DNA of 62,153 nt, counting the filler. It is 4 parts of 4 records of this genome, joined end to end, with 100 filler letters (N's around TTAATTAATTAA, not from the genome) between each part and the next. Parts side by side here need not be neighbours in the genome. Positions count along the whole stretch, not along the records: positions 36,732 to 47,958 come from DRR378314_2097; 3 more parts are not named here. One strand, given 5' to 3'. The translations under genes were made by a program, and so were the position numbers. Positions 13,499 to 48,058 of this stretch are shown one piece after another (position 1 is the stretch's first letter; each line of letters opens with the position of its first letter). A model generated the notes under the pieces. That model was given only the letters and a program-made list of their open reading frames with translations, ran no database searches and had not been told where the DNA came from.

Positions 13499-13598
13499 NN
13501 NNNNNNNNNNNNNNNNNNNNNNNNNNNNNNNNNNNNNNNNNNTTAATTAATTAANNNNNNNNNNNNNNNNNNNNNNNNNNNNNNNNNNNNNNNNNNNN
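13499..13598. other. Artificial contig linker
   Basis: 44 N + TTAATTAATTAA (stops in all six frames) + 44 N. Confidence 0.99.
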
Positions 13599-36631: not shown

Positions 36632-36731
36632 NNNNNNNNNNNNNNNNNNNNNNNNNNNNNNNNNNNNNNNNNNNNTTAATTAATTAANNNNNNNNNNNNN
36701 NNNNNNNNNNNNNNNNNNNNNNNNNNNNNNN
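36632..36731. other. Artificial contig linker
   Basis: N44-TTAATTAATTAA-N44. Confidence 0.99.
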
Positions 36732-37100
<369 letters not shown>

Positions 37101-37173: not shown

Positions 37174-37635
37174 TTACAAGCAAGACAACGCGTAGCGGAT
37201 TTGCTCAAAATTAAAGCCGCGTGTGGCGAGAAAACGTTCGCGTTTAGCACGCTCTTTGGGAGTATCACCTGGCGAGGAAAAGCGCCGAGCCAAGGTATCG
37301 CGAGCTAGCTCAAACCAATCTACGGCCTCGCGCTCTTCTACTGTGGCAAAAGCCGTCGTTGACGTTTCTTGATCTACGCCCCGCTGGCGCAGTTCCCCCT
37401 TAATGCGAATAACCCCTTGCCCACGAAGAATCCGTGAACGTATAAAGCTTTCGGCAAAACGTTCATCGGACTGTAAATCCTGCTCTTCTAAGCTATTCAG
37501 ACAGACATCAATTTCATCAGGCTGAAATGATTTTTGCTGCAACTTGCGCGCTAGCTCAGCACGAGAGTACTCGCGCCGAGACAGCATTTGAATCGCCACT
37601 TCACGCGGCGTTAACTCACTACTGGGGGGGAACAT
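37174..37635 (-). CDS. recX: Recombination regulator RecX
   Basis: LSRREYSRAEL, QSDERFA, G..RI..EL.QRGV, FL..RGF. Confidence 0.93.
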   Translation of the reverse strand: MFPPSSELTPREVAIQMLSRREYSRAELARKLQQKSFQPDEIDVCLNSLEEQDLQSDERFAESFIRSRILRGQGVIRIKGELRQRGVDQETSTTAFATVEEREAVDWFELARDTLARRFSSPGDTPKERAKRERFLATRGFNFEQIRYALSCL

Positions 37636-37651
37636 ACTGTTCTCTCAACGG

Positions 37652-38200
37652 TTAGAAGAGTGCGTCAATTCGCTCACTGATCAATGGCCAATTGGCGTCC
37701 TTCTCGGATACAACTGTGGGCGGAATAGGCCATTCAATCGCGAGGCGCTCATCATTATAGCGCAAACCACTTTCAGCCTCGGGATGATAGGCAGCCGACA
37801 CCAGATAACTGACCTCAACATCGTCGCTCAGCGTCTGAAAGGAGTGCGCAAAGCCTGGCGGCACATAAAGCTGGTACCGATTGGTCTCGGTCAGCTCGAA
37901 CAGCTGATGGTGCAGGTAGGTTTCTGAGTCTTCACGAATATCCACAATAACGTCAATAATGCTCCCCCGGAGGCAGCGCACCAGCTTGGCTTCAGCATGC
38001 GGCTCTCGCTGGTAATGCAGCCCCCTCAGAGTACCTCTCTTGGCTGAGAACGAGGTATTCTGCTGTACAAAATCGCCCAGCAAACCATGGCGCTCAAACT
38101 CCGCGCGGCACATAGTCCGGGCAAAAAAGCCCCGCTCATCACCATGGGCCTCAAGCTCTATCAGCTTGGCATCCTTGAGTTTCGTTTGATGAAATAGCAT
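37652..38200 (-). CDS. rfbC: NDP-4-keto-sugar 3,5-epimerase (RmlC/RfbC cupin)
   Basis: DERGFF, GTLRGLHYQ, K.VRC..G, PPGFAHSF, SEKD. Confidence 0.9.
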   Translation of the reverse strand: MLFHQTKLKDAKLIELEAHGDERGFFARTMCRAEFERHGLLGDFVQQNTSFSAKRGTLRGLHYQREPHAEAKLVRCLRGSIIDVIVDIREDSETYLHHQLFELTETNRYQLYVPPGFAHSFQTLSDDVEVSYLVSAAYHPEAESGLRYNDERLAIEWPIPPTVVSEKDANWPLISERIDALF

Positions 38201-38203
38201 GGC

Positions 38204-39550
38204 TTACTCCACAAAAGTAGCGGCGGTGCCAGATAGGGGTTCCAAGGCAAACATGGCTTCTTGTTCAGCATACAGACGATCGATCAAGCGCAATGGTGGA
38301 ATAAGAACATCATCGAAGGTCAGTGCCGCGTCCTTTTCGACACGACCAACCACCTGGCACCCCAGCGCTAGACCGATAGGTAGTAGCCGTTCACGCCGTA
38401 TCACCTCTATGTTTTCAGCCATGCCGTAGACTTCGAAACCGCCGAGTTCTTCGATTTTATCGCCCTCACGCAAGGTTTTCTTGGCCATAGCGATCACGCC
38501 CACCCTTGGGCCGCCTAAAGGAGATAAAACCGGATCACGGAACAACACTGCTCGCGCAACGGACGTGGGCACTTCAAAATGGCAAAGGTGATAAGGCGTT
38601 GAAAAGCAGTAATACGGCCCCTCGCCCATTTTATAAAGCTCGAGATAATGCCGTTGACGGGGATTATCGATGGTGCCCAACACGAACACACCCGGCCCCG
38701 GCCGTGCTCCAACAACGTAATCCACCAGCCCCGGCCCTGCCGGATCTAGGTAGGGTTCAAACGCCGCTATCGTCTCCTCGATAGGTACCAAGGGTCCACC
38801 AGGCACACCACCGGAAAAATCAGGACCGAGCATGCCGCGTTGAGCGACTCGCATGCCGGTACCATTGGCGACAATCGCCTGTTCAAACGAAATCTTGGTG
38901 CCATCGGCAAAAGACGCCACCATCGCCGCCTTCTGTCCCCAGCGTTTAGCAAAACTTTCCTGGGTAGCCGGATTGCGATAAGGATCATGCAGCCCCTTGA
39001 TGTTGCCACACAGCACAGGCTTAACACCCAGACCGGCGACGAAGCGATAGAGATTCATCTGTACGCCAGGCTGGTCGCCATCGGCAAAACTATAGATAAC
39101 GCCTGCAGCATCAGCCTTCGCTTTTAAAATAGGGCCGATCGTACCGTCGAGTTCCGCATTCATTTGAATGACGTCTTTACCACTTTCAAGTGCCGCCAGC
39201 ACGACATGTGCGGCGAACTCCAACGAGCCGGTTACCTCGATGATCGCATCCAACCCTTCCGCGCGAGCCAGAGCCACGGCATTCTCAGTAACTGCCGCTC
39301 GCCCCGCAGCAATCGCCATTTCAAGCTCCTGCTGAGTGTCACAGGCGATTGGTTCAATATCGGCTTGTTGATAGACCTTGACCGCTGCATCAAGGTGACG
39401 ATTGGCAATAGCGCAAAGACGCATTCCCGCTGTTGCCGTCATAATCTGCAGGCCGATCCCCCTCGCTTGGAACCCGGCTCCGATCATTCCTACTCGAATG
39501 GGATTGCCTTGAGCCTCTCGCTTGGCAAGTGCTGTATCAACGATAATCAT
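38204..39550 (-). CDS. NAD(P)-dependent oxidoreductase, homoserine-dehydrogenase-like with C-terminal SAF domain
   Basis: IGAGFQA, NAE.D.TIG, GDQPG, DGTK..FE...VAN, C-terminal AKK.L..GD...GG, LPIGL. Confidence 0.85.
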   Translation of the reverse strand: MIIVDTALAKREAQGNPIRVGMIGAGFQARGIGLQIMTATAGMRLCAIANRHLDAAVKVYQQADIEPIACDTQQELEMAIAAGRAAVTENAVALARAEGLDAIIEVTGSLEFAAHVVLAALESGKDVIQMNAELDGTIGPILKAKADAAGVIYSFADGDQPGVQMNLYRFVAGLGVKPVLCGNIKGLHDPYRNPATQESFAKRWGQKAAMVASFADGTKISFEQAIVANGTGMRVAQRGMLGPDFSGGVPGGPLVPIEETIAAFEPYLDPAGPGLVDYVVGARPGPGVFVLGTIDNPRQRHYLELYKMGEGPYYCFSTPYHLCHFEVPTSVARAVLFRDPVLSPLGGPRVGVIAMAKKTLREGDKIEELGGFEVYGMAENIEVIRRERLLPIGLALGCQVVGRVEKDAALTFDDVLIPPLRLIDRLYAEQEAMFALEPLSGTAATFVE

Positions 39551-39557
39551 CGGAGAT

Positions 39558-40334
39558 TCACTCCTTCCAAAGCTTCCAGGGAGCACTTTCCGCCCAAGCG
39601 GCCTCCAGCACCATCTTGTCCCTCAGAGTATCCATGCTTTGCCAGTATCCGTTGTGATGGAAATATCCCAATCTGCCCATTTCAATCATTCGCTGCATGG
39701 GCTCGTTTTCCCATACGGTCTGGCTGTCGTTAATCGTCTCGAATACTTCCGGCTCACAGACGAAAAAGCCGCCGTTGATCAGGCCACCATCTATTTCTCC
39801 CTTTTCGCGAAAGCCTTCCACCTGATTGTTACCTTCTTGCAAGCGCAGCGCACCATAGCGGCCCGGCTGCGTTACTGCCGTCAGGGTGCACCAATTTTTT
39901 GAGGCCAGATGAGAATCGATCAATGCTGTAATATCCAGGTCGCTCAGCCCATCGCCATAGGTCAAGCAGAAAGGCTCATCCGCCAGTAAATGCATGGCCT
40001 TCTTAAGCCGCCCACCTGTCATGGCATCGGCGCCGGTATCCAGCACGGTGACTTTCCAGTCATCGTTCACGCTTTGAAGCCAGGCGACTTTGCCTGTCTT
40101 CAGGTCGATGGTGTAGTCGGTTCGATTACCGCGATAATTGAGGAAGTAGTCGCGAATATACTCAACCTTATAGCCACCCAGCACGACGAATTCCTTCAAG
40201 CCGTGATGGGCATACATTTTCATGATATGCCAAAGAATCGGTCGCCCTCCTACTTCCACCATAGGCTTTGGACGAATCGCCGTTTCTTCACTCAAACGCG
40301 TGCCAAACCCTCCCGCAAAAATTGCAACTTTCAT
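39558..40334 (-). CDS. rfbF: Glucose-1-phosphate cytidylyltransferase
   Basis: AGGFGTRLSEET..RPKPM, DTG...TGGRL, TYGDG, INGGFF, WQSMDTLRDK. Confidence 0.93.
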   Translation of the reverse strand: MKVAIFAGGFGTRLSEETAIRPKPMVEVGGRPILWHIMKMYAHHGLKEFVVLGGYKVEYIRDYFLNYRGNRTDYTIDLKTGKVAWLQSVNDDWKVTVLDTGADAMTGGRLKKAMHLLADEPFCLTYGDGLSDLDITALIDSHLASKNWCTLTAVTQPGRYGALRLQEGNNQVEGFREKGEIDGGLINGGFFVCEPEVFETINDSQTVWENEPMQRMIEMGRLGYFHHNGYWQSMDTLRDKMVLEAAWAESAPWKLWKE

Positions 40335-41449
40335 GGCTTAGCCTCCATTTCAGGCATCGAAGTAACCGAGGAAGAGCCCGGCGAAGCAGTGGGAGTCACT
40401 CCATTACGAATTTGCCAACTCAGGTTCTCGGACAGGCGACCCTCGTCGATATGCGCTTGTAGCGCGTGCAGGCGCACATAGCGTGAGGTTCGGAATTGGG
40501 CATCAGTAAACTTCATGCCTTTTAGCCCATTAGCCACCCCTATTATCGAATCCCAAAGTGTCATTTTTGGCTGATGTTCTGGTGCTAACTTAGCGAACAG
40601 GCTGAAATCTACTTGGTAGGAGCGGCTGTCCGCCGGTGCTTGGGTATTGATACTCAGAGTGGTACCAGGAATTGCCTGGGCAACTGCCATCGCTAGATCC
40701 CGTACCTGATGGTTGCGTTCGTTAGAACCGGTATTGATATTGAGGATGCGCCCCCCATTTTCGGGCTTACGCTGTATCGCCCAACTAATGGCCCTTGCCA
40801 TATCGGAGACATCGATCAAGGGTCGCCAGGGTGACCCATCGCTAAGCACGGTAATATGCTGCTGACTAAGCGCGCAGGCGACAAAATCGTTGAGCACTAG
40901 ATCCAGGCGTAGACGTTCCGACATTCCGCAGGCAGTCGCAAAGCGTAAACTAGTAATCACCATGTCCACCTCAATGCCCGCCAAGGCTTCTTCTGCGGCA
41001 ATTTTTGAACAGGCATAGGCGGTAACCGGAGCCACAGCATCTGCTTCACAACGCGGCGCACCGAGGGCAATACCATAAATACTGCAACTCGAGGCAAACA
41101 CGAAGTTTTCCACTCCCGCTTGAGCCGCTGCTTTGGCCATGGCCACCGTAGCGTATTGATTGACGTCAGCCGTGACGGCAGCAAAACGATCTCCCATGGG
41201 GTCATTGGAGATAGCAGCCAGTTGAACCACGGCCGTGTAGCCTTCAAAAAAACCAGCAGGAATATCCCTAACGTCGCCCAAAAACTGTTGGGCGAGATAA
41301 CGTTCGGGAAGGAAATCGGCTCCCGTGAGACAGTGCGCGAAATAGGCATTGTCGTAACCATGAAGAGTGGCAGATGGATATCGTGCGGCTAACTCTCTTA
41401 CCAGTACGGAGCCGACGTACCCCATATTGCCCACGATTAATATTTTCAA
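40331..41449 (-). CDS. Extended SDR NAD-dependent epimerase/dehydratase
   Basis: GNMGYVG, LAAISNDP, ASSCSIYG, YACSK, RFATACG; TTG start. Confidence 0.9.
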   Translation of the reverse strand: MKILIVGNMGYVGSVLVRELAARYPSATLHGYDNAYFAHCLTGADFLPERYLAQQFLGDVRDIPAGFFEGYTAVVQLAAISNDPMGDRFAAVTADVNQYATVAMAKAAAQAGVENFVFASSCSIYGIALGAPRCEADAVAPVTAYACSKIAAEEALAGIEVDMVITSLRFATACGMSERLRLDLVLNDFVACALSQQHITVLSDGSPWRPLIDVSDMARAISWAIQRKPENGGRILNINTGSNERNHQVRDLAMAVAQAIPGTTLSINTQAPADSRSYQVDFSLFAKLAPEHQPKMTLWDSIIGVANGLKGMKFTDAQFRTSRYVRLHALQAHIDEGRLSENLSWQIRNGVTPTASPGSSSVTSMPEMEAKP

Positions 41450-41497
41450 AATATCACCCCATCATTTAGCGCCTGAGCGTCATTAAACCAAGTATTC

Positions 41498-42532
41498 TCA
41501 CGACCCTGTCTTAAAGCTGCTTTTATTTTTTATCCTGTTTTTTTCCTTCAAGTCAGCTTGCTCTTGGCATAGCTGGTCTAACCGCCACGTGGAAGTTTTC
41601 ATTTTTTCAATAGGTGTATCTGCAGCTTCAGACTCAGGGTAAAACCACAGACTTTCTAACATTCCGTGCAGAACTATCCTGGCCTTACGAACTTCACCTC
41701 TAAACAAAAGTATAAAAAAGAGCCGAGCAACTCGATAAACCTCTGAAATCATAAGGTAGCGATAATGTGGAAAATGGCGATATTTACGAGCGATATAAAT
41801 TTTATTTCTAATAAAGTAGCGGTATAACCTAAAGCGCGCCGGATTACTTTCATTAAGAATACTGATAGGGCCATTTTCTTGGCGTAAATGTTGCACTTTA
41901 CTCATACCAACAACATAACCGGGGTTTTCTTGAGTGACTCTTAAGGTAAATTCACTGTCTTCTCCCCAGATGAACATCGCGGTAATTGGTAAGCCATGTT
42001 GCGCCAAGGTAGTCCGCGGCAGCAGTATTGAAACGAAAGTAGCGCGATGCACAGCCACTACACCCAGCTCAAGCAGCTCGTGCCAGTCTCGATAACCAAT
42101 GGCATTTTTCAAAGGACTAATAATAGGAGTATTAGTAACCAGTCCAGTTTCAGTGAAGGCCTGGGAAAGAAGAAAAGCTGGTTTTTTTCCTTTATCTTTA
42201 AGCGCTTCATCGGCTAATAACAAAAAGTGAAGTGCGTCAGAACCAGGTATGACATCATCGTCCATTGTCCAAATAAAATCGGCACCCTCTTGATAGGCGA
42301 GACGCATACCTGCATTAAATCCCCCAGAGGCGCCAATATTATCCTTCAGCACATGTACCATAAGACCAGGGTAACTGCTTTCGGACAACATCTTTTGGGT
42401 ACCATCAGTGCTTGCATTATCAATGACGATGACACAATCGCAAGAACGGCACTGGGAATACACTGCATCGAGACATCGCTTCAGTAGTTCCTTTCGATTA
42501 TAAGTAAGGATTACCGCGAATACTTTATGCAT
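41498..42532 (-). CDS. Family 2 glycosyltransferase
   Basis: LTYNR, DNASTDGT, NIGASGGF, MDDD, WGEDSEF; visibly more AT-rich than its neighbours. Confidence 0.9.
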   Translation of the reverse strand: MHKVFAVILTYNRKELLKRCLDAVYSQCRSCDCVIVIDNASTDGTQKMLSESSYPGLMVHVLKDNIGASGGFNAGMRLAYQEGADFIWTMDDDVIPGSDALHFLLLADEALKDKGKKPAFLLSQAFTETGLVTNTPIISPLKNAIGYRDWHELLELGVVAVHRATFVSILLPRTTLAQHGLPITAMFIWGEDSEFTLRVTQENPGYVVGMSKVQHLRQENGPISILNESNPARFRLYRYFIRNKIYIARKYRHFPHYRYLMISEVYRVARLFFILLFRGEVRKARIVLHGMLESLWFYPESEAADTPIEKMKTSTWRLDQLCQEQADLKEKNRIKNKSSFKTGS

Positions 42533-42688
42533 AGCACACTTTCCCCAAAGATGAGCTTTTTCTTTTCGCGATAAAGATTAGCCTTTAAACTTAACCACCA
42601 GGCTCTCCATCATATGAAAAGTTATATTTCATTCTTTTATAATTATATAAGCAGCCCCTAACCTACAATCACCGAACGCTCCGTCATA

Positions 42689-42720
42689 GAAACGTAGTAG
42701 CAACGAAACGTAGTAGCAAC
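42689..42720. repeat. Perfect 16-bp tandem duplication
   Basis: GAAACGTAGTAGCAAC x2. Confidence 0.95.
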
Positions 42721-42858
42721 GGCGACTGTAAGTTACAATCTGATACCTAATGATATTAAAAGTTACATTTAAAAAATAAGCGACATGTTTTTTTCTGTCA
42801 AGCGCATGGACGGATCAAAAATCTAGTTTGCAGTACCATTTTTCTCATACAGGAAAGC

Positions 42859-42890
42859 AAAAGGGGCACCTTTTTAGGTACCCCTTTTTT
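42859..42890 (-). terminator. Terminator downstream of recA and the recX remnant
   Basis: Minus-strand RNA GGGGUACC-uaaaaa-GGUGCCCC-UUUU; the single mismatch is a G-U wobble only on the minus strand; T tract also on the plus side. Confidence 0.75.
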
Positions 42891-42940
42891 TCATGCTAAA
42901 AATACAGGCTAGGCTTATCGCCAAATTTAGCTTGCTACTG

Positions 42941-43057
42941 CAGACAGCAATCTCACCAGGCTGAAATGCTTTTTGCTGCAACTTGCATACTCGCTCAGCG
43001 CGAGAGCACTCGCGCCGAGACAGTATTTGAATCGCCACGTCACACGACGTTAACTCA
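42941..43057 (-). pseudogene. recX: Degenerate recX 5' fragment (direct repeat of 37502-37618)
   Basis: 103/117 nt identical by manual alignment; translates ELTSCDVAIQILSRRECSRAERVCKLQQKAFQPGEIAVC versus ELTPREVAIQMLSRREYSRAELARKLQQKSFQPDEIDVC; no start codon. Confidence 0.93.
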
Positions 43058-43087
43058 ACGGCTTAGAGAACGGCATCATAAAGAGGC

Positions 43088-44149
43088 TTACAGCAAATCA
43101 TCATCGCTCTCAGCGGCAACATCTGCCTCAGGAGCTTCTTCTTTTTTTGCATCCGGCGGAGCAAGCAATTGCGCTCGGATTTGCGCTTCAATTTCTTCCA
43201 TGGTTTCAGGGTGCTCTTCTAAATACTGAGCTGCATTGGCTTTGCCCTGACCAATCTTTTTGCCTTTGTAGCTGTACCACGCGCCCGCTTTGTCTACCAA
43301 GCTGCACTGCACGCCCAGATCAATCACCTCGCCCGCATGGTAGATACCCTTACCGTAGAGAATTTGGAACTCTGCCTGACGGAATGGCGGCGCCACTTTA
43401 TTTTTAACTACCTTCACACGGGTTTCGTTACCAGTGACTTCGTCACCCGATTTTACGGAGCCTGTACGTCGGATATCCAGACGCACGCTGGAGTAGAATT
43501 TAAGTGCGTTACCGCCGGTCGTGGTTTCGGGCGAACCAAACATCACACCGATTTTCATGCGGATCTGGTTGATAAACACCACTAAACAATTGGCGTTTTT
43601 GATATTACCGGTAATTTTACGCAATGCCTGAGACATTAAACGTGCTTGCAGACCAACGTGGGAGTCGCCCATTTCGCCTTCGATTTCAGCACGCGGCGTT
43701 AGTGCAGCCACGGAGTCGATCACGATCACATCTACACCGCCGGACCGTACCAACATGTCGGTAATTTCCAGCGCTTGCTCACCGGTATCAGGCTGGGAAA
43801 CCAGCAAGTCGTCTAGATTAACCCCAAGCTTTTCTGCATAGCTTGGGTCCAGAGCGTGCTCTGCATCGACGAACGCACAGACTTTGCCCTGTTTTTGCGC
43901 CTGCGCAATGACTGACAGGGTCAGCGTCGTTTTACCGGATGACTCTGGGCCATAAATTTCACATACGCGCCCATACGGCAACCCGCCGATACCAAGCGCG
44001 ATATCAAGCCCCAGTGAACCGGTGGAGACAGACGGCATTATTACGCGCGGTGCATCGCCAAGGCGCATAACGGTCCCCTTACCAAACTGGCGATCAATCT
44101 GGCTAAGTGCAGCATTTAGCGCTTTGGTGCGGTTGTCATCCTGAGCCAT
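43088..44149 (-). CDS. recA: Recombinase RecA
   Basis: [32 protein letters not shown]; start at MAQDDN with GAGG RBS. Confidence 0.99.
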
Positions 44150-44170: not shown

Positions 44171-44186
44171 CTGTATAATTAGCCAG
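44171..44186. promoter_or_regulatory. LexA (SOS) box
   Basis: CTGTATAATTAGCCAG = CTG-N10-CAG, 21 bp upstream of the recA ATG. Confidence 0.85.
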
Positions 44187-44239: not shown

Positions 44240-44773
44240 TTATTTCTTTTCACTGCCGTTGGCCTGGGCCGTCAAGCGCGCAACTAGGCCTGCCAATGCT
44301 TCACGTACGGCTTGTTCGCGTACCGCCTGTCGGTCGCCGTGAAAGTGGAAACACGCTGCCTGTTGGCTTTCTGCACTGCCCCAGGAAAGCCATACGGTAC
44401 CCACAGGCTTATCTTGACTGCCACCATCAGGACCAGCCACGCCACTGACGGCAACCGCTAAATCAGCCCCACTTGCTAAGCAAGCCCCCTTAACCATTGC
44501 ATTAACTACTTGCTCGCTGACCGCGCCGTGGGCTTCGATAAGCGCCTCGGGCACATCCAACATACGCGTTTTAGCAGCATTGGAGTAGGTTACATAACCC
44601 GCTGTAAAATACGCAGAGCTACCTGCCACAGAAGTAATTGCGCTGGCGATACCGCCGCCTGTACAGGACTCTGCGGTAGAAACTTCAACCTCAAGCTGCT
44701 GACACAGCCTTCCCAAGCGTTGAGCGAGCAGTGATAGGTCAAGATTCTTCAGGCTTGAAACGCTAGGTGCCAT
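44240..44773 (-). CDS. cinA: CinA C-terminal family / NMN deamidase (PncC-like)
   Basis: TAESCTGG, GSSAYF, YSN.AK, GVAGP.GG..KPVGTV. Confidence 0.9.
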   Translation of the reverse strand: MAPSVSSLKNLDLSLLAQRLGRLCQQLEVEVSTAESCTGGGIASAITSVAGSSAYFTAGYVTYSNAAKTRMLDVPEALIEAHGAVSEQVVNAMVKGACLASGADLAVAVSGVAGPDGGSQDKPVGTVWLSWGSAESQQAACFHFHGDRQAVREQAVREALAGLVARLTAQANGSEKK

Positions 44774-44934: not shown

Positions 44935-47502
44935 ATGTCACAGGCCAGCCCCGCTCATACGCCAATGATGGCGCAATATCTTAAGATCAAACGCGATCAC
45001 CCTGAGGTACTTCTGTTTTACCGGATGGGGGATTTTTACGAGCTATTTTTCGATGATGCCAAGCGCGCCGCATTGCTGCTGGATATCACCCTTACCCAGC
45101 GCGGCCAGTCAGGTGGCAAACCTATTCCTATGGCAGGTGTGCCCTACCATAGCGCTGAAGGCTATTTAGCTCGCTTGGTGTCAGCCGGTGAATCCGTCGC
45201 TATCTGCGAGCAAATCGGTGACCCTGCCACTAGCAAAGGCCCCGTTGATCGACAAGTAGTGCGTATTGTCACCCCTGGCACGCTTCACGATGAAGCCTTG
45301 CTGGATGCTCGCCGAGATAACGTGCTGGTCGCCGTTGCGCCCGGCAAAGACGGCTGGGGCCTTGCATGGCTGGAGCTTTCCAGTGGGCGCTTCAATGTCT
45401 TGGAAGTAGAAAGTGAAGCCGAGATGCAGGCAGAGCTAACCCGCCTGTCGCCCGCCGAACTGTTAGTGCCCGAAAGCCTGACCCTGCCCGACGCATGGTC
45501 ACAAAAGCGCAGCCTAAGACGCCAAGGGGAGTGGCTGTTTGACTTAGACAGCGCCACGCGCAGCCTGTGCGATCAGTTTGAAGTCCAGGATTTACGCGGC
45601 TTTGGTTGTGCGCACTTAACCAGCGCACTCATCGCGGCGGGCGTACTGATCGATTACGCCCGAGATACCCAACGTTCACGACTGCCCCACGTAACGGCCA
45701 TTAGCGTCGAAAACCGCGATGATGCCGTAGTGATTGACGCGGCCAGTCGGCGCAATCTGGAAATTGATATAAATCTCGGCGGTAACAGCGATAACACCCT
45801 GGCCAGCGTGTTAGACACCTGCACCACCGCGATGGGTTCGCGATTACTGAAGCGCTGGCTTAACCGCCCGCTGCGCCAGCGTAATATCGTGGAAGGACGT
45901 CACGCGGGCGTGGCGTTGCTCTCTATTGAAGCCGCCTACCTACCGCTACGCGATACGTTGAGTGATGTAGGCGACGTCGAGCGCATCCTGGCCCGCGTCG
46001 CACTGTATAGCGCACGCCCCAGGGATTTGGCGCGCCTGCGCGACGCCCTGGTAACGCTACCCGCACTTGAGCAATTGCTAAGCGAAATTGATAGCGGTAG
46101 CGCTATCGATGGTCTTAAACCTCACATTCGCCCCTACCCAGAAATAGCCGATACCTTAACTCGCGCATTGGTTGAAAATCCGCCCGTGGTGATTCGCGAT
46201 GGCGGCGTGATTGCGAATGGCTTTGACGCCGAGCTAGATGAGCACCGCGGCATGGCTGAGAATGCCGGTGAGTACTTAGTGCAATTGGAGCTGCGCGAGC
46301 GCGAACGCACTGGCCTGGCCAATTTGAAAGTCGGCTATAACCGGGTTCATGGCTACTTTATTGAACTACCTCGCTCTCAGGCTCAGCAGGCACCCGCCGA
46401 CTACATCCGTCGTCAAACGCTAAAAAATGCTGAACGCTTTATTATTCCAGAACTTAAAGAGTTTGAAGACAAAGCACTCTCGGCCAAGTCCAGGGCCCTC
46501 ACGCGTGAGAAGTGGCTCTACGAGCGCCTGATGGGTGAGCTCAACGCGGCGCTTCACGCACTGCAAAACACCTCGCGGGCATTGGCTGAACTTGACGTGC
46601 TCTGCGCCTTTGCCGAGCGTGCAGAGGCACTCAATTGGGTAAGGCCCCAGCTACGGGATGCCACTGGCCTTAGAATTACCGCTGGACGGCACCCCGTGGT
46701 CGAACATGTCAGCGATACACCGTTTGTACCCAACGATGTCACGCTAACACCTGATCAGCACATGTTGATTATCACCGGCCCCAACATGGGCGGTAAATCA
46801 ACCTATATGCGCCAGACCGCGCTCATCGCGCTGTTGGCGCATAGCGGCAGCTTCGTACCCGCCGATAGCGCTGAAATAGGCCCTGTAGATCGCATCTTTA
46901 CCCGTATAGGCTCGTCAGATGATCTAGCGGGTGGTCGCTCTACATTTATGGTAGAAATGACCGAAACCGCTAATATCCTGCACAATGCTACCGAGCATAG
47001 CTTGGTGTTAATGGACGAAATTGGTCGTGGCACCAGTACTTTTGACGGCCTTTCACTGGCCTGGGCAAGTGCTGAATACCTAGCCGAAGCAAAGGCACTC
47101 ACCCTGTTTGCCACACACTATTTTGAAATGACCGCGCTGCCGGAACAGGCCGAGGGTGTGGCAAATATTCACCTAACAGCCACCGAGCACGGCGACAGCA
47201 TCGTGTTTATGCACCGCATTGAAGCGGGCCCTGCGAGCCAGAGCTATGGCTTACAGGTAGCCCAGTTGGCAGGTGTTCCCAACCATGTAATACGCAGAGC
47301 CCGTGAAAAACTAATGGCCCTCGAGCAGCGCGATGTGGATGAGTTGCAGCGCCCTAGCGGCGTTTCTGCAGCACCGCAACAAAACGACTTGTTCGCCAGC
47401 GCACCGCACCCGGTGGTGGAAGCGTTAGGCAAAGCCGATGTAGACGATTTAACACCCCGCGAAGCGCTAGCGCTGCTATATCAGTGGCGAGAGCTACTGT
47501 AA
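44935..47502 (+). CDS. mutS: DNA mismatch repair protein MutS
   Basis: [41 protein letters not shown]. Confidence 0.98.
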
Positions 47503-47958: not shown

Positions 47959-48058
47959 NNNNNNNNNNNNNNNNNNNNNNNNNNNNNNNNNNNNNNNNNN
48001 NNTTAATTAATTAANNNNNNNNNNNNNNNNNNNNNNNNNNNNNNNNNNNNNNNNNNNN
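47959..48058. other. Artificial contig linker
   Basis: N44-TTAATTAATTAA-N44. Confidence 0.99.

Follow-up and report, generated by a model that had tools for sequence, protein, structure and literature searches.

A sugar operon of five genes separates recA from recX in the stretch of DNA analysed here (the window, 62,153 nt), from a Vreelandella (Halomonas) lineage, and is bracketed by two directly oriented copies of the start of recX. We favour, with moderate confidence, a single ancient illegitimate insertion of the microhomology type that duplicated its target, and the result looks like a fixed and immobile rearrangement, not a mobile element or an insertion hotspot. The window consists of contigs joined by N44-TTAATTAATTAA-N44 spacers at 13499-13598, 36632-36731 and 47959-48058, and the recA-recX locus lies on an 11.2-kb contig (36732-47958) whose end cuts alaS, leaving its 5' part only (36733-37079, minus strand; Pfam tRNA-synt_2c, 4.4e-45) beside the N spacer that begins at 36731. 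At the other side of the cassette lie recA (43088-44149, minus; Pfam RecA, 6.5e-142) and, assigned by domain search, a flanking cinA-family gene (44240-44773, minus) and mutS (44935-47502, plus).

Genes, signals and ends of the cassette

All five cassette genes are encoded on the minus strand. The first specifies a family-2 glycosyltransferase (GT2; 41498-42532; Pfam Glycos_transf_2; GC 42.5%) and is followed by genes for an SDR-type NAD-dependent sugar-nucleotide epimerase/dehydratase (40331-41449; Pfam Epimerase, 9.7e-34, with PDB matches), a glucose-1-phosphate cytidylyltransferase of the RfbF type (39558-40334; TIGR02623, 341 bits, cutoff 300.25), a DRL-family NAD(P)-dependent oxidoreductase (38204-39550; Pfam DRL_cat, 2.5e-48; PDB 3upy, 6.9e-65) and an RmlC-like sugar-nucleotide 3,5-epimerase (37652-38200; TIGR01221, 188.9 bits, cutoff 155.75). 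The oxidoreductase likely starts at 39550, since its homologues are 448 aa long and a GTG at 39586 would make a protein of 460 aa, while rmlC can be taken as complete because each of the 11 RmlC homologues aligned has 182 aa, with LF at the end of 10 of them. The matches of the SDR protein were confined to generic epimerase/dehydratase models and did not reach the cutoff of any; no dehydratase equivalog scored above cutoff that would mark it as a dedicated CDP-glucose 4,6-dehydratase, and its best solved relatives are 4-epimerase/dehydrogenase-like enzymes, so a 6-deoxy product is not established. Judged by family membership, the module probably makes a CDP-activated modified hexose that is transferred to a surface glycan.

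Upstream of the GT2 gene, repeat, composition and consensus scans define an AT-rich leader/promoter region (42533-42858, minus; GC 37%) that contains a tandem 16-mer in two copies (42689-42720) and a promoter-like TTGACA-17-TATTTT at 42801-42773. It is preceded by a predicted intrinsic terminator that came with the cassette, a hairpin of 13 pairs with a U run (42859-42888, minus), which folds at -25 kcal/mol (z -5.1; 0 of 200 shuffles equally stable) and is kept in the two related carriers described below with wobble changes. From terminator through promoter the sequence is almost invariant across the three carrier genomes. The bases between the terminator and the upstream junction at 42940|42941 (42889-42940, minus) are foreign, being unalignable to the recX of relatives with an empty site, and the whole 408-bp spacer 42533-42940 holds no ORF of at least 60 aa. 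Spacer alignment and the ends of RmlC homologues place the downstream junction at TCTAA (37652-37656, minus), where rmlC ends with its stop codon; the same five bases also occur in the native recA-recX spacer, a 5-nt microhomology.

The initial annotation described the cassette as free of integrase, transposase and terminal inverted repeats, and domain and repeat searches agree: neither the cassette ORFs, all five of which are sugar enzymes, nor the flanks on the window contig contain an integrase or transposase domain, the repeat search returned no inverted repeats at the cassette ends, and the 10 kb downstream in V. alkaliphila hold no integrase. A transposon or insertion sequence was rejected on the missing transposase domain and terminal inverted-repeat pairs and on a duplication of about 157 bp, not 2-14 bp.

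Two copies of the recX start and their history

The segments 37502-37618 and 42941-43057 match in direct orientation at 103 of 117 nt and lie 5439 nt apart; other direct-repeat families in the same 11 kb are just 15-25 nt long. The repeat is in frame with recX codons 7-45 and its longest exact run is 17 nt. Its 14 mismatches fall in 11 amino-acid-changing codons (12 nt, one codon with two changes) and 2 silent ones, or, counted per nucleotide, split 11 + 3. The match around the five sugar genes, this nucleotide-level split and the absence of 37619-37647 from the recA-side copy, with CTCA on both sides, had all been noted before and were recovered on re-computation and alignment. The duplication is longer than the 117 bp first given, however, as homology goes on past the 29-bp gap, through ACGG and into recA-recX spacer sequence up to ~37659, which makes the duplicated target ~157 bp.

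By alignment, the recX-side copy of this target (37502-37659, minus) extends from about position -22 of the spacer to recX codon 45, and contains both the 29 bp and a remodelled patch covering the ribosome-binding site (RBS) and codons 1-6 (~37619-37643). It belongs to an intact recX (37174-37635, minus) that lies 16 nt beyond the stop codon of the rmlC-like gene and encodes a full-length protein of 153 aa with three tandem helical domains (Pfam RecX_HTH1/2/3, all above cutoff). Against the NCBIfam RecX equivalogs this protein reaches 6.5e-37, yet its best score, 126.9 bits, stays under the 146-bit cutoff. Its identity to the RecX proteins of V. alkaliphila, V. venusta and locus L003 is 98, 94 and 90%.

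The recA-proximal copy, a recX fragment (42941-43057, minus; by alignment), is the original recX 5' end of the lineage, because the lineage's own recA-recX spacer leads straight into it, it is broken off at codon 45 and its sequence is in neutral decay. The spacer remnant (43058-43087, minus; by spacer alignment) would measure 42 nt, as in V. andesensis, were the 29-bp deletion undone. Asking which copy follows the vertical lineage, a check put forward at the outset, likewise leads to the fragment, which carries the native spacer and in V. venusta retains the ATG and the clade-typical start ATGTTTTCTT.. found in L003, L004, L005 and L045. Between the window and V. venusta the fragment diverges by 22% (raw), against a flank dS of 0.20-0.32. 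It is thus a pseudogene drifting at the neutral rate, in keeping with the earlier description of one decaying and one intact copy. The 29-bp deletion, which lies between the two 4-nt CTCA repeats and removed the RBS, ATG and codons 1-6 of the fragment, had been treated as a feature of the integration itself; since the V. venusta fragment still has those bases, it is later than the insertion and confined to the branch of the window and V. alkaliphila.

In the reconstructed common ancestor of the window and V. venusta, the two copies differ at no more than 5 of 116 sites (minimum 1) and have three derived states in common against L003-L005, which indicates that the fragment acquired most of the 14 substitutions only after the insertion. 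Gene conversion between the copies could also have produced this near-identity. On this reconstruction the target copies would have been near-identical over codons 7-45 at the event, but not over the RBS-to-codon-6 patch. In the intact recX this patch shows 6 derived changes in 33 nt versus 1-5 in the 116 nt that follow (Fisher p 0.0016-0.015), and 9-11 changes in 25 nt relative to L003 and L004, yet it is identical among all three intact copies. A simple origin from two identical copies does not account for the patch, which must either have undergone a burst of change once the insertion was in place or have come from a foreign source. A search of the window and 51 loci for the 25-nt patch returned nothing within 7 mismatches.

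V. alkaliphila DSM 16354 and V. venusta NBRC 102221 have the same arrangement of cassette and fragment, which is seen in no other of the 45 Halomonadaceae loci compared. At the remaining 43 the gap between recA and recX measures 15-69 bp and holds no cargo of any kind, which bears out the view of an insertion into the usual recA-recX-alaS order but gives no sign of different cargo at this site, for which a comparison across Halomonadaceae had been proposed. The cassette genes show dN/dS values of 0.03-0.16 and dS values of 0.19-0.46, like the flanks; the cassette is under purifying selection and diverges in step with its surroundings. As cassette dS is close to flank dS, the three carriers represent one shared event, whose age is bracketed by a dS to V. 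andesensis of ~0.65. The integration is accordingly old, as had been proposed, while the suggestion that the recX 5' end is an insertion hotspot finds no support in the single event and the 43 unoccupied sites. Elsewhere in this neighbourhood, L022 (2.0 kb) and Vibrio cholerae (5.6 kb) are the only loci of those compared to have an enlarged mutS-cinA interval.

The cargo is a widespread, syntenic chromosomal module that is present at another locus in relatives. Cassette homologues at 84-90% identity (69-72% for GT2) were found in V. andesensis, strain ABH-602 and sp. SpR1, all with an empty site, where they lie on a separate contig or at another place in the chromosome. In the plasmid collection, the only multi-gene match to the module was a non-mobilizable plasmid of Paracoccus sp. 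MC1862 (NZ_CP067230.1), where the same five families stand in the same order and orientation, GT2-SDR-rfbF-oxidoreductase-rfbC, at 43-69% amino-acid identity. Unlike the recA-recX cassette, the Paracoccus block lies among LPS and glycosyltransferase genes of a polysaccharide region, not beside recombination genes, and lacks the recX duplicate. The phage collection gave one trivial match of 126 nt.

Routes of insertion

We infer that the ancestor shared by V. alkaliphila and V. venusta, once separated from V. andesensis, received a whole sugar operon of five genes into the 5' part of recX by a recombinase-independent route, and that the operon brought along its upstream terminator and promoter. 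The TCTAA shared by the end of rmlC and the native spacer, at a junction with no recombinase, is consistent with such a route. The duplicated target spans ~157 bp, between spacer position -22 and recX codon 45, so that the far-end copy keeps recX whole and the recA-side copy was left as a pseudogene fragment, which on the branch of the window and V. alkaliphila later lost 29 bp between the two 4-nt repeats.

Capture of a circle by one homologous crossover, as in Campbell-type integration, is possible but not favoured, and we give it distinctly less weight than illegitimate insertion. The circle would have carried the cassette together with the recX 5' segment (-22 to codon 45) of a close relative, leaving donor-type RBS and first codons in the intact copy and those of the host in the fragment. 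An insert between direct duplications of a gene segment is exactly the topology of a single crossover, and a donor-derived left part would produce just such a divergent 5' patch in the intact copy, set against a host-type patch in the V. venusta fragment. However, one of the two cores (codons 7-45) should then be of donor type, yet the reconstructed cores are separated by no more than those 1-5 sites; the patches differ by ~30% after allowing for decay, whereas patch:core divergence ratios in real pairs are ~2-3.4. Such a chimera is a poor fit, save in the case that donor and host had nearly the same core. A donor in which rmlC was already joined to the recX spacer is also needed, and none of the 43 other Halomonadaceae loci has this join; nor did any of the sequences searched come near the patch.

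A site-specific integrative element or satellite, carrying a replacement 5' end to an att site and hotspot at the recX start and using an integrase in trans, seems very improbable. Islands that target gene ends classically leave a rebuilt gene end next to a displaced fragment, and the GC content of GT2 and leader is low. The repeats, 117 nt at 88% with exact runs of at most 17 nt, are compatible with an identical crossover core at the ends but equally with plain duplication, and so is the close similarity of the reconstructed ancestral copies. Against it stand the lack of integrase, excisionase, replication and transfer genes, the absence of other cargo at all 43 other loci, the single event behind three carriers whose cassettes co-diverge with their flanks, the ordinary chromosomal nature of the cargo, found elsewhere in relatives, and the non-mobilizable plasmid and trivial phage matches. 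That the arrangement is a misassembly, a possibility raised by the initial annotation, or an ancestral position lost in all other lineages is scarcely credible: the source contig is admittedly short and ends within alaS, but three independent assemblies agree, two of them within contigs of 124,141 and 697,661 nt, an exact run of just 17 nt would not lead an assembler astray, the spacers at the 43 empty sites are clean and bear no scars, and insertion is the only route to a partial recX duplicate.

Transcriptional context and comparison with known systems

A LexA-box-like site with one mismatch to CTGT-N8-ACAG is present at 44171-44186, upstream of recA only. Consensus scans and folding suggest that recX would be the sixth gene behind the cassette promoter, and that the predicted terminator would end the recA transcript after the recX fragment, separating recX from the LexA-box-bearing recA promoter. 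A more far-reaching interpretation, which we offer tentatively and think rather unlikely, is that RecX has been naturally uncoupled from RecA, with its dosage retuned by selection and the cassette locked in by deletion. Insertion would have taken recX off the SOS-controlled recA transcript and made it the last gene of a surface-glycan operon, and selection would have remodelled its RBS and first six codons, retuning dosage, with complete conservation afterwards; after the 29-bp deletion, recombination between the repeats would leave recX startless, and the cassette would thus be locked in.

The recA-recX insertion reveals neither a new mobile element nor a new integration hotspot. It provides a dated example of a whole operon entering a gene pair that is among the best conserved in bacteria without mobile-element machinery, in which the target gene, recX, survives via partial duplication. 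V. alkaliphila or V. venusta, paired with V. andesensis, would give strains predicted to differ in the co-transcription of recX with recA, a useful contrast for asking how far RecA-RecX co-regulation matters.

Integrative elements that replace gene ends include e14 and phage 21 in E. coli icd and islands in the 3' ends of tRNA genes. As at recX, the inserted DNA lies between direct repeats of part of a housekeeping gene, with the gene intact at one end and a displaced pseudogene fragment at the other. They duplicate the 3' end, in contrast to the 5' end at recX, where in addition the host's original is the displaced fragment and not the intact copy, integrase and phage genes are lacking, the cargo is a chromosomal sugar operon, and the site has been used once among 45 species representatives.

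Other related processes are microhomology-mediated template switching, a recombinase-free route to rearrangement, and illegitimate and homology-facilitated illegitimate recombination, which de Vries, Huelter and Wackernagel reportedly studied during foreign DNA uptake in Acinetobacter baylyi. These share with the recX case the independence from a recombinase, the few shared bases at a junction (TCTAA here) and the local rearrangement of the target. A target duplication of 157 bp is unusual for simple replacement by a linear fragment, and implies a circular or replicative intermediate; to our knowledge, natural competence of Vreelandella is not established.

The Pseudomonas mutS-cinA insertion hotspot holds tailocin and prophage clusters, with about 47 clusters reported there (PMC4684702). 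The same conserved neighbourhood, mutS / cinA-recA-recX, takes in foreign gene clusters in both cases; the Pseudomonas hotspot lies one spacer further upstream and is used repeatedly by phage-derived cargo, whereas the recA-recX spacer has been used once, by a metabolic operon.

Anatomy of the recA–recX interval

The locus occupies an 11.2-kb contig at 36732-47958, one of four contigs in the window, which are separated by spacers (N44-TTAATTAATTAA-N44 at 13499-13598, 36632-36731 and 47959-48058) across which features are not readable. On the minus strand, cinA (44240-44773) is followed by recA (43088-44149), a 30-nt remnant of the recA–recX spacer, a recX fragment (recX′, 42941-43057), 52 nt of unrelated sequence, a strong predicted intrinsic terminator (42859-42888; predicted fold -25 kcal/mol, z -5.1) and an AT-rich leader with a promoter-like TTGACA-17-TATTTT; the gene annotation of the locus places mutS divergently on the upstream flank. 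A cassette of five sugar genes follows on the same strand, comprised of a family-2 glycosyltransferase (GT2; domain match), an SDR epimerase/dehydratase (domain and PDB matches), a glucose-1-phosphate cytidylyltransferase (TIGR02623, above cutoff), a DRL-family oxidoreductase (PDB 3upy, 6.9e-65) and an RmlC-like 3,5-epimerase (TIGR01221, above cutoff). Sixteen nucleotides past this last gene lies an intact recX (37174..37635), and then the start of alaS, which is truncated by the contig end. The longest open reading frame of the DRL oxidoreductase (38204-39586) encodes 460 aa from a GTG at 39586, while close homologues have 448 aa; its start is therefore probably at 39550, so that there is no apparent overlap with the cytidylyltransferase gene.

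As the initial annotation had reported, no integrase or transposase is encoded among the five cassette proteins or in the flanks, and no inverted repeats are found at the insert ends. The cassette leader contains no open reading frame of 60 aa or more, and Rfam has no match anywhere on the 11.2-kb contig at E values up to 1. No mobile-element genes lie on the window's other contigs, which carry pilMNOPQ-aroKB-gltBD, flagellar flg genes, TonB receptors and various regulators.

Self-alignment of the locus confirms that the two recX copies form a direct repeat, with 37502-37618 and 42941-43057 aligning without gaps at 103 of 117 positions, 5439 nt apart (repeat family D1). The repeat corresponds to recX codons 7-45, in frame on the minus strand, and its longest exact run is 17 nt; the further direct-repeat families listed in the same 11 kb measure 15-25 nt each. 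Its 14 mismatches alter the residue in 11 codons (one with two substitutions) and are silent in 2, in agreement with the earlier count of 11 residue-changing and 3 silent substitutions. Positions 37619-37647 are absent from the recA-side copy, with CTCA at either side as first described, and similarity resumes beyond this gap and extends through the recA–recX spacer to ~37659; the duplicated target is therefore ~157 bp. The 29-bp gap occurs only in the window and in Vreelandella alkaliphila, as the V. venusta fragment keeps the spacer, the ATG and codons 1-6, and it reflects a deletion after the insertion, between two repeats of 4 nt. If the two recX copies recombined in either of these genomes, the cassette would be lost, yet recX would be left without a ribosome-binding site (RBS) and start codon.

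The recA-side fragment directly adjoins the lineage's native recA–recX spacer, and the V. venusta fragment begins with ATGTTTTCTT.., a start common to four relatives (L003, L004, L005 and L045). The fragment is therefore the original recX 5′ end, broken after codon 45, where the unrelated sequence and terminator begin. At the downstream junction rmlC is complete, since its homologues are uniformly 182 aa (11 of 11 aligned) and end in LF in 10 of 11. The sequence at this junction, TCTAA, ends rmlC and also occurs within the native spacer, a microhomology of 5 nt. The proposal that recX was rebuilt at the far end of the insert describes the locus correctly: the gene is whole there and a fragment is left beside recA.

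Distribution and age of the insertion

A RecX scan taking one genome per species yielded 49 loci, 45 from Halomonadaceae. Only two of these 45 contain the cassette with a second partial recX match, in identical arrangement: V. alkaliphila DSM 16354 and V. venusta NBRC 102221, whose mutS, cinA and recA are ~96.4% and 92.5-95.6% identical in nucleotide sequence to those of the window, respectively. In the remaining 43 the recA–recX gap is 15-69 bp, and the next closest species with an empty site are V. andesensis (L003, 42 bp) and V. zhaodongensis (L004, 52 bp). These clean spacers reject an ancestral cassette position lost elsewhere. Misassembly is likewise not credible, because the same structure lies within a 698-kb contig of V. 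alkaliphila and a 124-kb contig of V. venusta and the repeat has no exact run longer than 17 nt.

Longer spacers at neighboring positions were seen between mutS and cinA in Halomonas sp. AOP13-D3-9 (2.0 kb) and Vibrio cholerae (5.6 kb), and between recX and alaS in the metagenome-assembled genomes Halomonas sp. 54_146 (1.8 kb) and an Ectothiorhodospiraceae (1.0 kb); the recA–recX spacer of Actinomadura is 2.3 kb. Two further genomes labelled V. venusta, ABH-461 and ABH-602, have RecX proteins 79-80% identical to that of the window, against 94% for NBRC 102221, and stand as separate species representatives; their label therefore looks inconsistent.

The window and V. venusta fragments differ by 22% over spacer plus fragment and by 25% over a 116-nt core. 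The corrected core divergence of 0.30 matches the dS of the flanking genes between the same genomes (0.20-0.32), as expected from the neutral decay of the fragment proposed initially. Over the same comparison the five cassette genes show dS of 0.19-0.46 and dN/dS of 0.03-0.16; they are functional and have been co-inherited with their flanks since the window/V. venusta split. Parsimony at this node places fragment and intact copy at most 5 differences apart in 116 sites, a minimum estimate because tied states were resolved in favor of the intact copy. Relative to L003-L005, three derived states are common to both copies, and dS to V. andesensis is ~0.65. Together, the near-identity at the node, the shared derived states and dS therefore place the event between the divergence of V. 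andesensis and that of V. alkaliphila from V. venusta, shortly before the latter, as old as had been proposed. Most of the window's 14 copy differences arose later, on the fragment.

Source of the sugar module and transcription of recX

The five-gene set, with order and orientation preserved, also occurs among LPS genes on a Paracoccus plasmid (43-69% amino acid identity). Within the genus, V. andesensis encodes GT2 (69%) and RmlC (84%; WP_126944099.1) on a 315,971-nt contig and recA–recX on a 177,032-nt contig; the ABH-602 chromosome with the recX locus encodes DRL (88%) and GT2 (71%) at a different position; and in Halomonas sp. SpR1 an 85,346-nt contig encodes RmlC and DRL under adjacent accession numbers, the recX locus being on a 150,204-nt contig. 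These homologues, away from empty recA–recX sites, indicate that the module's usual location is a different one. The window's RmlC shares 89% identity with a V. titanicae/V. sedimenti cluster and 84% with V. andesensis, whereas its MutS, CinA and RecX are closer to V. andesensis (97, 92 and 90%) than to that cluster (~89, 75 and 72%); the module therefore moved horizontally within the genus. The plasmid collection placed the cassette on no Halomonas plasmid and contained only distant module homologues, and the phage collection gave a single 126-nt match of no significance. Some GT2 homologues (P0388, P0393) are fused to an RmlD/SDR-type sugar-nucleotide-binding domain (~555 aa), and several plain ones are annotated 'dTDP-4-dehydrorhamnose reductase', which may hint at the transferred sugar or be annotation carry-over.

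Where the site is empty, recA and recX are separated by 15-69 bp, and the spacers examined showed no terminator. In the carriers, a strong terminator is predicted after the fragment on the recA transcript and recX lies 16 nt behind rmlC; thus recX is probably coexpressed with the sugar operon instead of SOS-regulated recA, a natural uncoupling of the two genes that would be a useful consequence of the insertion. A LexA-box-like site with one mismatch lies upstream of recA; the cassette leader has none, sites with at most one mismatch being confined to the region upstream of recA and two coding regions. The ~150 nt from terminator through promoter (including 42802-42858) are almost invariant in the three carriers, above coding-sequence conservation, which argues for function. 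The copy number of a 16-nt tandem unit in the leader (42689-42720) varies: the window has two, V. alkaliphila DSM 16354 one, and V. venusta NBRC 102221 ~3 that are degenerate. The unit may bind a regulator, or may simply be a variable repeat.

Mechanism and comparison with known systems

Illegitimate recombination is the best-supported reading, to which we give somewhat better than even odds, because the target is duplicated directly, no recombinase is present and one examined junction has microhomology. The start of the intact recX does not fit a simple version of such an insertion. From the RBS to codon 6, a patch of 25-33 nt carries 6 changes derived relative to the V. venusta fragment and outgroups, against 1-5 in the next 116 nt (Fisher p 0.0016-0.015), and it is identical in all three intact copies. 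Among 41 aligned relatives the nearest differ from it at 31-38% of 39 nt, and no donor with 7 or fewer mismatches was found in the window or 51 loci. All three carriers begin recX with ATG TTC CCC CCC, giving a C7 run at codons 2-4 (37623-37629), where close relatives have TTT TCT TCC; no length variation of the run was seen. A C9 run in V. janggokensis lies a few codons deeper into recX.

Three accounts of the patch remain: mutations clustered when the event occurred, selection acting afterwards on how recX is translated in the new setting, or import together with the cassette by a Campbell-type integration. For the last, rmlC must already have been joined to the recX spacer in the donor, and the donor's codons 7-45 must have been nearly the same as those of the host. 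A site-specific satellite element, one of two mechanisms proposed in the initial annotation, has no positive support: there is no integrase, the insertion is a single event, and no other cargo occupies the site in 43 loci, which also speaks against the recX 5′ end being the suggested insertion hotspot. Of that overall interpretation, therefore, the old insertion, rebuilt recX and neutral decay stand, and the hotspot and satellite element are not supported.

The mutS–cinA spacer of Pseudomonas is a known hotspot for tailocin and prophage clusters (PMC4684702), while the insertion described here lies in the recA–recX spacer. This article, on a neighboring hotspot, was the only relevant one found on recX in Halomonas. 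Searches on recA–recX, recX islands and recX in Halomonas found no report of an insertion between the two genes; in the portions available, the literature on the interval between recA and recX all concerns regulation. Nothing was found on cytidylyltransferase with epimerase in Halomonas, and nothing relevant under illegitimate recombination. Integrative elements that replace the end of a gene include e14 and phage 21 at icd and islands at tRNA genes. The carrier locus resembles these in layout but does not qualify as one of them by the tests that define them. The event is of a type already known, and the recA–recX insertion is a fresh instance of it.
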